Below are positions 2,903 to 42,871 of a DNA stretch of 64,000 nt, piece after piece (position 1 is the first letter of the stretch; the number at the start of each line of letters is the position of its first letter). Source of the stretch: Escherichia phage E26; sequence record MN655998.1. One strand, given 5' to 3'. The position numbers and the translations under genes are program-made. The notes under the pieces were generated by a model. That model was not told where the DNA came from and did no database searches. It saw only the letters and a list, made by a program, of their open reading frames with translations.

Positions 2903-3340
2903 TTATTTGTTGATAACGATCTGATTTCGGCGAATGGTAACATTACTCTTAGAGATGATCAGATCATCCGGCACTACGTTAGTTTTGTATGGCTGGAAGC
3001 GAACAAGCATCTGATTGCGTTTAGACCCTTCCTTAATCTTGATTTCCATCTGGATATTGTTGCCTACGTGAGCAACCGCAATTTCACCTTTATTCTCATA
3101 GACCAACTTGCTGGTAACGTCTCCTGCAAAAGCCTTAATAACTTGCAATGCTTCGTCGTATGCGGTAGAGCTGTGAACTTTCAGAAGGCCAGCCGTAGCA
3201 AGACGGGAGCAAGTGATCGCCGGAGATTGCCAAACATCAACATTAATTTGCTCAATCAGAGTAACACCGCCCTGATCAACTGCTTTGAATGCTTCAAACA
3301 TTGCCTTTTTCATTGCTACGTGGTTTTTACGGAATTTCAT
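2903..3340 (-). CDS. hypothetical protein
   Basis: ORF track 145 aa; no recognisable motif. Confidence 0.5.
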   Translation of the reverse strand: MKFRKNHVAMKKAMFEAFKAVDQGGVTLIEQINVDVWQSPAITCSRLATAGLLKVHSSTAYDEALQVIKAFAGDVTSKLVYENKGEIAVAHVGNNIQMEIKIKEGSKRNQMLVRFQPYKTNVVPDDLIISKSNVTIRRNQIVINK

Positions 3341-3386
3341 AATTAGTCACCTCTATTGATTAGTTATTCAAAATATTAATTACAAA

Positions 3387-3662
3387 TCAGGACATTGCCC
3401 GTTTGAATGCGTCCATTATAACAGTGTTATTTGGCTTGTCAACACGTTTTTGAACTTTATTTTTAAATTTTTTGTTGATGTGGTGTTTACGATAAACAAC
3501 CTTTTCACGGTTGGCGTAAGCCTCGCGTGCGTCTTTTACCATCAACCATGCCTTAGCCGCATCTTGTCCGCTGATCCCGCCAATCTTCTTAGCAATATCA
3601 ACAAAATTAAGACCGTGGTCTTCGCGTAGCATGTAAACCATTAACGCTGTTTTCTTGTCCAT
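3387..3662 (-). CDS. hypothetical protein (start placed at internal Met MDKKTALM)
   Basis: Track ORF 3387..3770 overlaps upstream ORF by 108 nt in another frame; internal ATG gives a 1-nt overlap with the stop of the 3662..3859 ORF. Confidence 0.4.
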   Translation of the reverse strand: MDKKTALMVYMLREDHGLNFVDIAKKIGGISGQDAAKAWLMVKDAREAYANREKVVYRKHHINKKFKNKVQKRVDKPNNTVIMDAFKRAMS

Positions 3663-3859
3663 CACTTCGCCCCATTGACGATTAACAGGATAGTGATCAG
3701 TACCGGAAACTGGATCATGACAGTACCAAAAAACCGGATAAACGCATTTTCCGACTTCCACACATGACATGCGACTAGCTGATAGACCATTGTTGCAACC
3801 AAAGCCAGAAAATACATCTCGATTGGTGCTTCTTTGATCAATCGTACAATCTCATTCAT
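3662..3859 (-). CDS. small membrane protein
   Basis: 65 aa with two hydrophobic helices. Confidence 0.4.
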   Translation of the reverse strand: MNEIVRLIKEAPIEMYFLALVATMVYQLVACHVWKSENAFIRFFGTVMIQFPVLITILLIVNGAK

Positions 3860-4021
3860 ACTTCACCTCATACATTCATAAACACAACAACGAATAATAC
3901 AGTAACAGTTATCAACGCCATTTTCAACCCCATATTCATAATATTTTCTTCGCCTCACGATGACAGTAGCATGTCGATGCGTGCCATTATAGGCATCTAA
4001 ATCGCTCTGTCAAGCACTAAA

Positions 4022-36832: not shown

Positions 36833-37309
36833 TTAATCATGACCGTGATTTGCAATATCCGCGCGTGTCTTATCTTTGTGGTTCCCTACATCAAAGACAC
36901 GATAGCCGTTTTCTCTGAGAACTTTAATCACTTCTGGGTTATCCTCAAAGACTCCCACTACTTCATCTTTATCAAAGGATTTAATTACCTCTAATTTGAT
37001 GTGATAGTCTTTACGGGAATCGGTACGGCCTCTCATAAAGATTTTATCAAAACACACCCCGTTAGAAATTAACCAATCAATTGTTTCCATGTAAGCATGT
37101 GAACTTCGTCCGGTGAGGATGTAAATCAAATGCCCGTTGTCGGAAAGAGCATTAATAACACGAATTACATCGTAAATGGGGGAATCTCCCCCACATGCCT
37201 TGTTATATTCGATCCATGACTCTACTTTATCAAGATTTTCGGTTGGCATCTTTGCTAGTCGATGTGTTGGATCTGTGATCGTAAAATCTAAATCAACAAA
37301 ATATATCAT
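36833..37309 (-). CDS. HAD-superfamily phosphatase-like protein
   Basis: 158 aa; N-terminal DLDFTITD (DxD motif I), later ILTGRS and FEDNPE motifs. Confidence 0.55.
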   Translation of the reverse strand: MIYFVDLDFTITDPTHRLAKMPTENLDKVESWIEYNKACGGDSPIYDVIRVINALSDNGHLIYILTGRSSHAYMETIDWLISNGVCFDKIFMRGRTDSRKDYHIKLEVIKSFDKDEVVGVFEDNPEVIKVLRENGYRVFDVGNHKDKTRADIANHGHD

Positions 37310-38466
37310 AGATATTTCCCGAATCGGTTGTAGTCATCGTCTGTTAAATCGGTATTAACCTGAGATACCAGATACATGATCTCTACTTCTTGCGCCGCGT
37401 TTTGAACTTCGTCAGAGTTCAACCATTTACGCATCCACGGTAAAGGATGACGACGAACACTAAACGGGCTTTTCAGTCCGGCAGCACGCATACGGGAATC
37501 TGCCAGGTATTCTACATAGGTTTTCAGAATTTCCGGTGACAGGTTAGGAATTGCCCCCATTGCGAATAGGTGGTCTACCCATTCTTTTTCTTGCTCGACA
37601 ACATCCAGAAAGATTTTCGTTGCTTCGCCTTCAAGTTCTTCCGCAATCTGTTTCCACTCATCACCATCAACCCCCGTTTGCCATTGACGAATAATGTATT
37701 GTGTGCCTTTTAAGTGAAGTTGTTCATCACGCGCAATAAATTTCATGATCTTCGCGTTACCTTCCAGTAAACCACGTTCGGCAAAGCTGAAAGTACATGC
37801 AAAGGACACATAAAAACGAATTGCTTCCAAAGCATTAACGCAGTGTGCACACAGATAAATCGAAGCCATCAGATCTCGTTTTGTATCTTCAAAAAATCTT
37901 CTTGCATCATCTAATGCTGCCTGGTCGTCTCGTTCTTCCCAATAGCGGAGATCTTCTTTTGCATTCTCATACTTACGAATCCAATAAAGAACATCATCAT
38001 AATATTTCCCGATAGATTCCGCTCGCTTCATGATAGCAGGGTTATCGATGATCTGGTCGAACTCACTAGCCGGATCAATAAAACAGTTACGCATAATGTG
38101 AGTATAACTGCGGCTATGAATCGTTTCGCTGAATGTCCATGTTTGTAACCATGTATCGAGAGTTGGATCAGATACAATTGGACCAAATGCTGCGGACGGT
38201 GCGCGACCTTGAATAGAATCAAGTAATGTCTGATACTTCAAGTTTTCGGTAAAGAAACGCTTTTCAACGTCACCCATATTAAGATATTGAATGCGGTCGG
38301 TTGCAAGTGAAATCTCTTCTGGACGCCAGAAAAATGACAATTGCTTTTCGATTAGTTCTTCAAATACTTGATGACGCTGAATATCATAGCGAGCGATACC
38401 CAACCCACTACCCAGAAACATCGGTTCGTTCATAATATCAACATGTTCGCGGTTAAATACGCTCAT
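37306..38466 (-). CDS. nrdB: ribonucleotide reductase small subunit
   Basis: 386 aa; di-iron R2 motifs (EAIRFYVSFA, ERGLLEGN); no intron interruption. Confidence 0.9.
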   Translation of the reverse strand: MSVFNREHVDIMNEPMFLGSGLGIARYDIQRHQVFEELIEKQLSFFWRPEEISLATDRIQYLNMGDVEKRFFTENLKYQTLLDSIQGRAPSAAFGPIVSDPTLDTWLQTWTFSETIHSRSYTHIMRNCFIDPASEFDQIIDNPAIMKRAESIGKYYDDVLYWIRKYENAKEDLRYWEERDDQAALDDARRFFEDTKRDLMASIYLCAHCVNALEAIRFYVSFACTFSFAERGLLEGNAKIMKFIARDEQLHLKGTQYIIRQWQTGVDGDEWKQIAEELEGEATKIFLDVVEQEKEWVDHLFAMGAIPNLSPEILKTYVEYLADSRMRAAGLKSPFSVRRHPLPWMRKWLNSDEVQNAAQEVEIMYLVSQVNTDLTDDDYNRFGKYL

Positions 38467-38481
38467 TAATTCACCTCACTA

Positions 38482-38649
38482 TCACTTTTTAACACAAAAG
38501 AACTTAGTATTTCTGTTTATTTCGCTATCCTGTTGTAGTTCCCGCAAAGCCTCAAAACAACTTTGATGAGATGTAAACTCTACACCAGTGACCGTGCCTT
38601 TATTATACACACCAACACTAACGGAAAGCAATAACCATATTGTAGCCAT
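38482..38649 (-). CDS. small signal-peptide/membrane protein (55 aa), tandem paralog
   Basis: Manual translation MATIWLLLSVSVGVYNKGT...; TAATG stop-start overlap. Confidence 0.4.
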   Translation of the reverse strand: MATIWLLLSVSVGVYNKGTVTGVEFTSHQSCFEALRELQQDSEINRNTKFFCVKK

Positions 38650-38822
38650 TAGTTCACCTTCTGCTTTTCAACACAGTACAGATTCATAAAGCGTTTATTG
38701 TCTTCGCGGATAATCTCGCGAGCTTTAACGCAATCCTGCTTTGTGGAAAATTCAATGCTTGACATATTTCCGTAATTATACATTGAATTGCTTATTGCAA
38801 TCAATAACCATACAGTAGCCAT
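38649..38822 (-). CDS. small signal-peptide/membrane protein (57 aa), tandem paralog
   Basis: Manual translation MATVWLLIAISNSMYNYGN...; TAATG overlap with upstream ORF. Confidence 0.4.
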   Translation of the reverse strand: MATVWLLIAISNSMYNYGNMSSIEFSTKQDCVKAREIIREDNKRFMNLYCVEKQKVN

Positions 38823-38989
38823 TATCCGACAACCTCAAAACATTTATCATCAGGAAGAATAGCCCATTCTACGCCGTATTCATCCTTAACGTAGTAGCAA
38901 GTCCCATCATGTCGAGCATCATATTCATCACCGACAACAAAGCTATCAGCTAGCTCAAAATCTACCGCAACACATTTTAATTTTGCCAT
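38822..38989 (-). CDS. small hypothetical protein (55 aa from internal Met MAKLKCVAVDF)
   Basis: Track start 39052 lies inside the promoter cassette; internal ATG has SD GAGGA. Confidence 0.45.
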   Translation of the reverse strand: MAKLKCVAVDFELADSFVVGDEYDARHDGTCYYVKDEYGVEWAILPDDKCFEVVG

Positions 38990-39020
38990 AATAAAATCCT
39001 CATTTGTTTTTGATGGTTGA

Positions 39021-39049
39021 ATTATAGCGGGGATTTCTCCCCGCGTCAA
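39021..39049 (-). promoter_or_regulatory. PeSL-like early promoter cassette 16
   Basis: TTGACG-CGGGGAGAAATCCCCGC-TATAAT; palindromic spacer. Confidence 0.6.
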
Positions 39050-39057
39050 CACTTATT

Positions 39058-41301
39058 TTACAGCTTGCAAGATGAGCACTCGCTAGCGTCTTCCGTACCA
39101 TCTGCACCATCACGCACGTTAGCGTAATACAGTGTCTTGAGGCCGTAATATTGAGCAAACAACATATCATCTAATACATCAGCAATATCGACTTTACCAG
39201 TCTTATAAGTGCTTGGATCGTAGGATGTGTTGGAACTAATCGCCTGATCTACAAACTTCTGCATGATCGCTGCCAGTGTCAGATAAGGCTTGTTACCTTT
39301 CTTGATCAGTGTCCAAAGCAGGTCAATAACATCAGCATTATTCTCTACGTTCGGAATAACCTGATTAAATTGCCCTTCTTTCGATCCTTTAACCGATACA
39401 ATCCCGCGAGGCGGTTCAATACCGTTTGTGCTGTTAGACACCTGAGAAGACGACTCACAAGGCATCAGAGCCGAAAGCGTACTGTTACGAATGCCATATT
39501 TTTTCAGGTCTTCGCGCAGTTCTTCCCAATCCATCTCATACACCGGATCAACCAGTTCATCTACTGTCTTTTTGTACCAGTCAATAGGAAGTTCACCGCG
39601 ACCATAACGTGTTTCGTGCATCAGTTCGCAAGCGCCCTTCTCTTTAGCCAGTTGCACACTAGCTTTAATCAGAGCATATTGCAAGCGTTCAAACGTTTTA
39701 TGCGTAAACTCGTTAGCGTCTTCATATGTGAAGAAATTATCCGCAAGATATGATGCAAAGTTAGTCACGCCAACACCCAGAGAGCGACGTTTTTTGGCTG
39801 TCAGAGCTTGTTCTACTGGATAATCCTGGTAATCTAACAAGTTGTCAAGCGCACGCACCATAACCATAGCAATGCGTTCTACTTCTTCCATGTTTTCGAT
39901 ATCGAAATTACCTAAAACATATGCTGCCAAAGTGCATAGACTGATCTCTGAATCATCACGACCCATCGGTTTTGTCGGCAGAGCAATTTCACAACACAGG
40001 TTAGATTGTTTAATCGGTGCTACATTACGAATAAACGCCCCGTGATTGTTCATGTTGTCTGTGAACGCTGGATAGATTCGACCAGTGTTAAAACGTTCAA
40101 TTGCCACCGCTAAAAACAGGTCTTCGGCTTTAACACGAGTTTTACGAACACTCGGATCTTTTTCCAGTTTTTCGTAAAGCTGACGGAATCCTTCCTCATC
40201 TCGGAAGTACAGATCCCACAACAAGCCACCCGCAACATCTGGACTAAACAGAGTAATGTAATCCCGTTTAAGGAATCGCTCTACCATCAGGTTATTAATC
40301 TGTACGCCGTAATCAAGATGACGAATGCGGTTATCTTCTACCCCTTTGTTGTTCTTCAACACAATAAGACTTTCAAACTCTAAATGCCACATTGGGTAAT
40401 AGAGAGTCGCCGCTCCGCCACGAATACCGCCTTGCGAGCATGACTTAACAGCAGTCTGAAAATGTTTCCAGAATGGGATAACGCCAGTATGACGAACTTC
40501 ACCATGTCCGATCTTAGATCCTTCCGCGCGAATCATACCAGCATTGATACCGATACCAGCACGCTTACTAATATACTTGATGATTGCATTTGCTGTTTCA
40601 TTGATGCCCTGCAATGAGTCATCACTTTCAATCACCACACACGAACTAAATTGTCGTGTTGGAGTACGCACACCCGCCATAATCGGAGTAGGCAGAGAAA
40701 TTTGCTTATTCGCAACAGCATTATAAAAATCAATCACATGTTCAAGTCGATTTTCTGTCTCTTCTTGATGTAAGCACATACCGATCAGCATATAAGCAAA
40801 TTGCGGTGTTTCAATGATTTTCTTAGTGCTGCGATCCTGAACAAGATATTTCTCTTTTAACTGCATCGCACCAGCGTAGGTCATTTTAAAATCAAGTTTA
40901 TGATCGATGAATTTCTCCAGATATTCCACTTCTTCACGGGAATACTTTTGCAGAATTTCGCGATCATATTTTCCGGTTGCAATATTACGCTCAATATGGC
41001 TATAAAAATCAATCGGTTGGAATTGACCGTATACTGATTTACGAAGCGCGAACATTGCAAGGTTACTTGCTACATATTGATAATCAGGTGTTTCTACAGT
41101 AATGTTATCTGCGGCGACCTTAATCAATACTTTCTGGATATCATTGGTAGACATACCTTCTGTCAGAAGTGGTTCAACCATATCAAACAATTCATATGGA
41201 TCAACGTTATGACCTTCGGCTGCCGCTTCCAGAATTTTCATTACTTTTTCTTTTTCAAACGGAACAGTCAGACCGGAAGACTTAACAACATTTTTAATCA
41301 T
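39058..41301 (-). CDS. nrdA: ribonucleotide reductase large subunit
   Basis: 747 aa; ATP-cone N-terminus, class Ia R1 catalytic motifs, C-terminal CSSCKL. Confidence 0.92.
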   Translation of the reverse strand: MIKNVVKSSGLTVPFEKEKVMKILEAAAEGHNVDPYELFDMVEPLLTEGMSTNDIQKVLIKVAADNITVETPDYQYVASNLAMFALRKSVYGQFQPIDFYSHIERNIATGKYDREILQKYSREEVEYLEKFIDHKLDFKMTYAGAMQLKEKYLVQDRSTKKIIETPQFAYMLIGMCLHQEETENRLEHVIDFYNAVANKQISLPTPIMAGVRTPTRQFSSCVVIESDDSLQGINETANAIIKYISKRAGIGINAGMIRAEGSKIGHGEVRHTGVIPFWKHFQTAVKSCSQGGIRGGAATLYYPMWHLEFESLIVLKNNKGVEDNRIRHLDYGVQINNLMVERFLKRDYITLFSPDVAGGLLWDLYFRDEEGFRQLYEKLEKDPSVRKTRVKAEDLFLAVAIERFNTGRIYPAFTDNMNNHGAFIRNVAPIKQSNLCCEIALPTKPMGRDDSEISLCTLAAYVLGNFDIENMEEVERIAMVMVRALDNLLDYQDYPVEQALTAKKRRSLGVGVTNFASYLADNFFTYEDANEFTHKTFERLQYALIKASVQLAKEKGACELMHETRYGRGELPIDWYKKTVDELVDPVYEMDWEELREDLKKYGIRNSTLSALMPCESSSQVSNSTNGIEPPRGIVSVKGSKEGQFNQVIPNVENNADVIDLLWTLIKKGNKPYLTLAAIMQKFVDQAISSNTSYDPSTYKTGKVDIADVLDDMLFAQYYGLKTLYYANVRDGADGTEDASECSSCKL

Positions 41302-41615: not shown

Positions 41616-41650
41616 TTGATACTCCTGGCGGGGATTTCTCCCCGCCTTTG

Positions 41651-42871
41651 TTAGACTGCCATTTGAGCGGTGATCGCTGGATGGCTTTGATAGTTGTGAA
41701 TTTTAAAGTCTTTCGGAGTTTTTGTCAATACCTCCTCTAAAGATTTAAATTCCGGCAACTCAATTGTTGGTTTATCAAACGGAACACGGTTTAATTGCTC
41801 CATAACTTGATCAAAATGGTTTTTGTAAATGTGAGTATCTCCACCAGAGAAAATCAGTTCTCCTACCTCAAGATCACACATTTTCGCTATGATGTGAGTT
41901 AACAGCGCATAGCTGGCGACGTTAAAGGGCAAGCCCAAAAAGCTGTCTACGCTTCGCTGAAACCACATACAAGACAGTTTACCTTCATTGACGTAGAATT
42001 GCACGAAAGGATGACATACACCTAATACAGCATTATGTGTTCCTTGTACGTTCCATGAGTCAATAATGATCCGGCGATCCGTTGGATTGTTTTTAATTTG
42101 TTCAATCACGTTTTGTAACTGGTCTTCCCAAATCTTCGGGCGATAGACATATTCTTCATCGTCTTTAGTGCTTGATGTGTCTACGTCCATACTAACAAAC
42201 ATCGTGGTATCCGGTGCTAAAATGTCGCCACCCAGATAATCACTATCAAGCAGATAATCGAAATAACCACTATCTACCCATTCCTGGAATCCCCACAAGC
42301 AATATGCATCATTAACAAAATTAGATTGAGTCTTCCAGTGGTCTGCTACCAGAATACAATCAAACTCTTCATAAATCATACCACGCCAGATAGCACATAA
42401 ACGGTCTTCTGTTTCATTGGTTGGCGTAAAGTCTTCTACCCACGGGTGTTTAAATGTATGTGTATATTTGCTCTTAACACGCTTAATTTTGATCTCACCG
42501 TGTGGATGAATCGGTTTGCGTCGCCATGCCATGCCATACATATTCCCAACATTATAACCATTGAATCGCAAAGGATTCTTTTCTTTCATATCAAGACAGT
42601 TGCCGCGCCAAATGTCGAAGGCTTCTTCGTCAAACTTACCGCGTGTAATTTCCTGTAAGCGACGGCGGTCAAGTGATCCCTCCATAAACCATAGCAATTC
42701 GCCAATTACAGAGGCTGTAGCCATCTTTTTAGTGGTAAGTAAGGGGAAACCCTTGCTTAAGTCAATTCGCATTTCTGTACCGAATTTAGAGAGCGTACCT
42801 ACCCCAGTTCGGTCGTCACGAGGCCAACCATTATCAAGAACATCACGCAATAGTTTCAAATATTCTTTCAT
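41651..42871 (-). CDS. td: thymidylate synthase with large in-frame insertion
   Basis: 406 aa versus about 286 in T4 Td; conserved ThyA blocks flank an extra segment of about 115 aa. Confidence 0.85.
   Translation of the reverse strand: MKEYLKLLRDVLDNGWPRDDRTGVGTLSKFGTEMRIDLSKGFPLLTTKKMATASVIGELLWFMEGSLDRRRLQEITRGKFDEEAFDIWRGNCLDMKEKNPLRFNGYNVGNMYGMAWRRKPIHPHGEIKIKRVKSKYTHTFKHPWVEDFTPTNETEDRLCAIWRGMIYEEFDCILVADHWKTQSNFVNDAYCLWGFQEWVDSGYFDYLLDSDYLGGDILAPDTTMFVSMDVDTSSTKDDEEYVYRPKIWEDQLQNVIEQIKNNPTDRRIIIDSWNVQGTHNAVLGVCHPFVQFYVNEGKLSCMWFQRSVDSFLGLPFNVASYALLTHIIAKMCDLEVGELIFSGGDTHIYKNHFDQVMEQLNRVPFDKPTIELPEFKSLEEVLTKTPKDFKIHNYQSHPAITAQMAV

Follow-up and report, generated by a model that had tools for sequence, protein, structure and literature searches.

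Three TAATG-linked small genes between nrdA and nrdB of an RB49-like phage: a PeSL-type promoter and two members of a two-cysteine phage protein family

The gap between the ribonucleotide reductase (RNR) genes nrdA and nrdB of Escherichia phage E26 was found to contain three small genes, designated orfA, orfB and orfC, which are almost certainly real coding genes. They were studied in a window of 64,000 nt (the whole stretch of DNA analysed, from record MN655998.1). The locus as a whole probably represents a set of dispensable, translationally coupled early genes driven by a PeSL element, in which orfB and orfC encode soluble two-cysteine proteins with a beta-beta-alpha-beta fold that would bind a host or phage partner, probably as dimers. 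The three genes are not new; they have already been annotated, they already belong to a phage family, and they lie behind an element of an already described type.

Gene anatomy, earlier annotation and selection

The window derives from a Krischvirus, that is, an RB49-like phage of the T4 type, and the region is 92-97% identical to those of RB49-like coliphages. The features of the locus, in the order of transcription, are as follows.

39058..41301, minus strand: nrdA, large subunit of class Ia ribonucleotide reductase; 747-aa ORF, annotated as nrdA in RB49, ECD7 and others (94-96% DNA identity)
39021..39049, minus strand: PeSL element, TTGACG-17 nt-TATAAT, with the hairpin GCGGGGAgaaaTCCCCGC at 39027..39044 in the spacer
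38997..39001, minus strand: Shine-Dalgarno (SD) sequence GAGGA of orfA, 7 nt 5' of the ATG at 38989; the annotation of Makalu_003 has a ribosome-binding site here
38822..38989, minus strand: orfA, 55 aa, equivalent to RB49ORF233c; PHROG 16302
38649..38822, minus strand: orfB, 57 aa, equivalent to RB49ORF232c; PHROG 5579
38482..38649, minus strand: orfC, 55 aa, equivalent to RB49ORF231c; PHROG 5579
37306..38466, minus strand: nrdB, ribonucleotide reductase small subunit; 386-aa ORF with the SD sequence GAGGTGA, annotated as nrdB in relatives

An earlier note, made from the sequence alone, had described three minus-strand ORFs linked by TAATG overlaps at this place, and its coordinates agreed with those determined here. 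orfA follows nrdA after a gap of 68 nt. It shares one base with orfB at 38822, and orfB shares one base with orfC at 38649, which gives the TAATG junctions GGATAATGG and AACTAATGG. The stop codon of orfC (TGA) is located at 38482-38484, and nrdB starts 12 nt further on. Each of the three genes has an SD sequence of its own, that of orfB being GAGG, 10 nt upstream of the start, and that of orfC AAGGTG, 5 nt upstream. The earlier reading of the locus as three real genes, in a layout suited to translational coupling, was upheld. The N-termini quoted for orfB and orfC, MATVWLLIAISNSMYNYGN and MATIWLLLSVSVGVYNKGT, were exact, and the C-termini said to be of the CV(E/K)K type were found as CVEK (followed by QKVN) and CVKK.

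It had also been claimed that the ORF track supplied with the sequence missed two of the three genes and over-extended the first one, orfA. This was correct, since a mechanical ORF list with the default cut-off of 60 aa contained only 38822..39052, a version of orfA with a GTG start and 76 aa. This GTG coincides with the -35 hexamer of the PeSL promoter. Among the relatives inspected, RB49, ECD7, Makalu_003, phiS and G5211 were annotated with the ATG at 38989 or its equivalent.

In RB49 (AY343333), RB49ORF233c, RB49ORF232c and RB49ORF231c have been annotated between nrdA and nrdB as hypothetical proteins since 2003. These genes and their orthologs in approximately 55 Krischvirus genomes had the same order, the same gap and the same TAATG junctions as the genes of the window. 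The proteins were 87-100% identical, and the few amino acid differences were mostly in orfC.

Selection was analysed in an alignment of nine Krischvirus genomes as the mean pairwise dN/dS. The numbers of variable sites at codon positions 1, 2 and 3 were 4, 2 and 11 in orfA, 4, 0 and 10 in orfB, and 9, 5 and 20 in orfC. The dN/dS values were 0.13, 0.05 and 0.14, respectively, compared with 0.011 at the end of nrdA and 0.031 at the start of nrdB. orfA, orfB and orfC are thus under purifying selection, which is less tight than that on the flanking enzymes. The earlier note had named a lack of frame conservation in related phages as grounds for refutation. The outcome was favourable to the genes and exceeded chance; the variable sites were biased to the third codon position, and both TAATG junctions were invariant in all nine related phages.

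Family, fold and predicted location of the orfB and orfC products

orfB and orfC matched the PHROG 5579 profile (E=5.5e-24 over residues 2-53 of 57 and E=1.8e-21 over residues 2-55 of 55, respectively), which distant family members also matched. orfA matched a different family, PHROG 16302, and is an ORFan confined to Krischvirus; its product is acidic (13 D/E versus 5 K/R) and has 3 Cys. A word-indexed search of 5.8 billion proteins returned 17 clusters only, all of them Krischvirus-like. The family is a rare one; when 1.84 billion representatives were searched exhaustively with a profile, approximately 70 members were obtained at E<=1e-3, nearly all of which were 52-70 aa long. The family alignment was characterized by two invariant Cys and by a conserved N-terminal W-L-L-I (at least 90% of the family) followed by x-G-x-Y-N-x-G. 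Exactly two Cys were present in 90 of the 92 distinct family members, at a spacing of 15-24 residues, and the Cys of orfB (C31/C50) and of orfC (C31/C52) both fit this signature. Scans of the three proteins against Pfam, NCBIfam and PADLOC gave no match above noise. A profile search of the PDB gave one match only, at chance level, and no solved structure for PHROG 5579.

The orfB/orfC pair had been attributed to a tandem duplication. The homology of the two was upheld; in BLASTP the proteins aligned over the full length (E=1e-15, 36% identity), they share membership of PHROG 5579, and no further paralog was found within the 64-kb window. Duplication in place is unproven, as orfB was closer to its homologs from T7-like phages (50-52% identity in the MAFFT alignment) than to orfC (39%). 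orfC was 59% identical in the MAFFT alignment, and 53% in a pairwise local alignment, to the single-copy gene of L010, a diverged metagenomic phage. In L010 and in another diverged Krischvirus-like lineage, L024, one family member was located directly upstream of nrdB; these members were 53% and 47% identical to orfC, whereas NrdB was 89-93% identical. They clustered with orfC in a neighbour-joining tree, a weak one built from short sequences, in which orfB and orfC were not each other's closest relatives. Within Krischvirus, the identities to RB49 were 98% for orfB, 87% for orfC and 99.5% for NrdB. Because the single members of L010 and L024 grouped with orfC and had diverged so much further than NrdB, it appears that the orfC-type gene is an old, fast-evolving resident of this slot. 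orfB may be an old diverged duplicate or a gene acquired from another phage, and on the sequence comparisons these two origins, duplication in place and separate acquisition, are equally plausible.

Outside Krischvirus, PHROG 5579 was represented by a single copy at the loci examined, in contrast to the pair found here. Homologs were located between the helicase and DNA polymerase genes of T7-like phages (L003 and L019) and, in L004, a member of the Drexlerviridae, after the gene for polynucleotide kinase. L020 had its copy in a nin-like region, L021 close to an integrase gene, L022 within a sugar-biosynthesis cluster and L023 beside a Dam methylase gene. The surroundings in these unrelated phages are small genes of the early or accessory kind. 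A neighbour common to the distant family members was looked for at these loci and was not found, so the context gave no functional hint. One metagenomic protein of 44 aa (P0016) consisted of the first 29 residues of orfB joined to the last 15 of orfC, without the helix and the first Cys; it probably arose through an out-of-register deletion and is likely non-functional.

AlphaFold2 predicted strands at residues 4-11, 20-25 and 46-53 and a helix at residues 28-41 for orfB (shallow alignment, pLDDT 78). For orfC, modelled with 58 diverse homologs, the same beta-beta-alpha-beta topology was predicted with a pLDDT of 91 (86 for the N-terminal block and 91-94 for the later blocks). Given this topology in both proteins, the hydrophobic N-terminus is predicted to belong, as a strand, to the core of a small globular domain, with residues 5-11 forming a high-confidence strand that is built into the sheet at a pLDDT of approximately 86-92. 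The fold resembled many uncharacterized phage proteins of 50-65 aa (TM 0.7-0.84). Matches to small binding proteins of the alpha/beta sandwich type, namely the periplasmic domain of MzrA (4pwu), ClpS and the anti-CRISPR proteins AcrIC8 and AcrIIC3, were obtained at 6-13% identity and with no common motif, and they were no better than those to many unrelated ferredoxin-like domains. This likeness of the predicted models suggests a binding module and does not assign a function.

The earlier note had taken orfB and orfC for small membrane or secreted peptides and had proposed signal peptide and transmembrane prediction as a check. The question was approached by Kyte-Doolittle hydropathy, with a 19-residue mean of approximately 1.6 as the threshold for a membrane span, and by the charge of the n-region. 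The best means were 0.61 for orfB and 1.11 for orfC; the family median was 0.98, and a value of at least 1.6 was reached by only 4 of the 92 members. orfB and orfC begin with MAT and have no K/R before the hydrophobic run. As no membrane span and no positively charged n-region were found, and the N-terminus is predicted to be a core strand, the membrane or secreted reading was not sustained. It is likely, on the strength of the hydropathy and the predicted fold, that both proteins are soluble and cytoplasmic rather than exported.

The alternative that orfB and orfC are exported or membrane-anchored, with a signal peptide cleaved after S-x-G and a periplasmic disulfide (serving, for example, superinfection exclusion or envelope signalling), is unlikely. 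It could explain the small residues at -3/-1 (S-x-G/S) past the hydrophobic stretch, which are conserved in at least 70% of the members, although the same motif also fits the turn between strands 1 and 2. The presence of exactly two invariant Cys is odd for a cytoplasmic mini-protein and would suit an exported disulfide. However, K/R before the hydrophobic run was present in only 10 members and absent from 82 of the 92, and the strictly hydrophobic run had a median length of 7 and a maximum of 9 residues. Moreover, W-L-L-I is conserved as a sequence, unlike signal peptides, and this segment was placed in the sheet of the AlphaFold2 models with the confidence given above.

Promoter element and plasticity of the gap

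The promoter upstream of orfA (TTGACG-17-TATAAT) matched the sigma-70 consensus at 11 of 12 positions, and its -35 hexamer begins 9 nt past the stop codon of nrdA. The spacer is filled by the hairpin GCGGGGA-gaaa-TCCCCGC, which formed seven pairs in the minimum-free-energy fold with a folding z-score of -2.7. The site was present in all nine relatives, with TATAAT in eight of them and TATACT in Makalu_003. It was identical in L010, of which NrdA and NrdB are 86-89% identical at the protein level, and the annotation of GEC-3S has a promoter at this position. An Rfam scan of the region gave no RNA family.

Elements of this kind are known as PeSLs, the promoter-early stem-loop cassettes of RB49/phi1-type phages (PMC2839356, PMC4122927). 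In reporter assays, PeSLs acted both as strong sigma-70 promoters and as terminator-like attenuators, and the exchange of cassettes is mediated by them; promoters with a hairpin in the spacer are the commonest subclass in RB49 and phi1 (PMC2839356). The nrdA-orfA copy shares with the described PeSLs a consensus sigma-70 promoter right past the upstream stop codon, with a hexamer spacing within 16-18 nt and a stable G/C-rich stem-loop; downstream of it come an SD sequence and the first codons of a small ORFan. The nrdA-nrdB gap, the nrd genes and these ORFs are not mentioned in either PMC2839356 (Arbiol et al. 2010) or PMC4122927 (Comeau et al. 2014), and a literature search on Krischvirus transcriptomics gave nothing relevant. 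By analogy with the described elements, this PeSL probably attenuates read-through from nrdA and starts an orfA-orfB-orfC-nrdB transcript early in infection. Because the promoter is present and the stretch from orfA to nrdB was found to be free of terminator-like sites, the early transcript would likely cover these four genes and the overlapping downstream phosphatase-like gene.

Two other sites were observed on the minus strand. A sigma-70-like site within orfB (38775-38804; TTGATT-18 nt-TATAAT, a 10/12 match) coincides with the codons of the conserved residues L7-I8 and Y15-N16, which make up its hexamers, and the L010 homolog has the same layout; it could be a promoter for orfC-nrdB or a mere by-product of the protein motif. 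The 18-nt hairpin GCGGGGAGAAATCCCCGC occurs twice in identical form, at 39027-39044 in the PeSL after nrdA and at 41628-41645. The latter copy lies between the thymidylate synthase gene and a DUF4326-type ORF, has no -35 or -10 hexamers around it, and may be a bare attenuator or a PeSL remnant. The thymidylate synthase ORF itself (41651-42871, minus strand) has 406 aa and is similarly long in RB49, JSE and L010. Typical ThyA proteins have approximately 265-290 aa, and the middle part of the 406-aa protein appears to be an insertion.

The content of the gap varied among relatives. JSE retained orfA without orfB and orfC, and the stop codon of orfA was joined directly to the nrdB leader, followed by a homing endonuclease gene; judged by the extent of the matches, AV108 and FL15 likewise kept orfA and lacked orfB and orfC. 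FL20 and G37-3 had one chimeric copy, the first 21 nt of which corresponded to orfB and the remainder to orfC, as expected of unequal recombination within the near-identical 5' ends of the two genes. orfA was broken by a frameshift in FL20 (L006, 1572-1737) and by an in-frame stop codon in G37-3 (L007, ~1572-1739), and it was split or truncated in the records of AV108, FL37, FL04 and kaaroe. The breaks may reflect decay of orfA in part of the genus, or sequencing errors in some of the records. In view of the losses, breaks and chimeras across relatives, each of the three genes is dispensable in at least some phages.

The gap had also gained genes. Endonuclease genes were located between orfC and nrdB in phiS and G5211. 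In KMB43 (L009), a cytosine methyltransferase gene was located between nrdA and orfA, with two identical PeSL copies at 1604-1640 and 2504-2540; judging from this arrangement, it is a clear case of PeSL-mediated cassette insertion. In the same record orfC was present and unannotated. L010 had no orfA and only a single PHROG 5579 gene, and its nrdA was split into two ORFs by a gene inserted at 3260-3973, which has a faint I-HmuI/NUMOD-like match and is probably a homing endonuclease. The nrdA-nrdB gap of T4 contains the homing endonuclease gene mobE and nrdB.1, at the same landing site as the endonucleases of JSE, phiS and G5211, and differs from the gap studied here in having no PHROG 5579 member. 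T4 NrdB.1 (83 aa) was considered as a small-ORF counterpart and was rejected, since comparison by eye revealed no motif in common with orfA, orfB or orfC.

Possible function

Under the preferred reading of the locus, the PeSL would act as an early promoter and drive the orfA-orfB-orfC-nrdB transcript straight after infection, while its spacer hairpin would damp read-through from nrdA. Ribosomes ending one ORF would restart on the next, so that the products would be made in near-equal amounts. As soluble cytoplasmic mini-proteins, orfB and orfC would form dimers, either each with itself or the two with each other, or they would dock on a host protein. Pairing or docking is proposed because all residues of W-L-L-I are conserved and both faces of the predicted sheet are hydrophobic, whereas the single helix covers only one of them. 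The two proteins would then be dispensable, fast-changing early modulators of the host take-over or counter-defence type and not parts of ribonucleotide reductase. A role as binders or modulators is proposed tentatively on the basis of the models, and the best guess at their function is that they bind a host protein as dimers.

Two other explanations of the locus were considered, both of them very unlikely. The small proteins might be accessory factors of RNR that participate in NrdB assembly, reduction or regulation, which would account for their constant position in the nrdA-nrdB gap. Every Krischvirus-like lineage sampled, the diverged L010 and L024 among them, had a family member immediately upstream of nrdB; co-transcription with nrdB is probable, and the Cys pair could perform redox chemistry or bind a metal across a dimer. 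On the other hand, JSE, AV108 and FL15 retained nrdA and nrdB in the absence of orfB and orfC, and homologs in T7-like, lambdoid and Drexlerviridae phages had no adjacent RNR genes; deletions of the JSE type and homologs away from RNR genes thus weaken this explanation. The small protein was only 47-53% identical where NrdB was 89-93% identical. There was also no match to NrdI, NrdH or YfaE, nor to a family in Pfam or NCBIfam; orfB and orfC have only two Cys, 19-21 residues apart and without CxxC, and a ferredoxin-type cluster needs more than two per chain. A connection with nrdB of some kind is still conceivable, since a family member is always located just upstream of this gene in Krischvirus-like phages.

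It might alternatively be supposed that the protein sequences are irrelevant, the ORFs being either cargo without function in a mobile PeSL cassette or no more than a leader whose translation tunes nrdB. The high plasticity of the gap would agree with this, as would the PeSL-flanked cargo inserted in KMB43, the broken orfA of several phages and the absence of orfB and orfC from others. Nevertheless, the dN/dS values of 0.05-0.14 and the strong third-position bias point to selection on the proteins, and the predicted fold and the Cys pair appear to be kept among family members from unrelated phages whose identity has fallen to 25-50%. Purifying selection and family-wide conservation therefore contradict such an explanation.

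A bolder extension of the binder proposal may also be put forward, although it is rather unlikely in its full form. PHROG 5579 might be an unrecognized, widespread class of two-Cys beta-beta-alpha-beta dimers, represented in Krischvirus by an orfB/orfC heterodimer, that block a specific host factor, for instance a defence or stress-response protein. The slot on the nrdB side would then be an arms-race locus, in which alleles are swapped by PeSL-mediated and paralog-mediated recombination.

The importance of the locus is modest, because the three genes have been in public annotation as hypothetical proteins for two decades and the regulatory element is of a described type. The present analysis corrects the membrane or secreted reading of orfB and orfC and adds a confident predicted fold together with a family signature of two invariant Cys and the W-L-L-I strand. 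It also presents the nrdA-nrdB gap as a minor hot spot where genes are gained, lost and fused, and in which the gene adjoining nrdB changes much faster than its neighbours. If a target of the family is found later, the orfB/orfC pair would be a handy test case for the diversification of phage mini-proteins.
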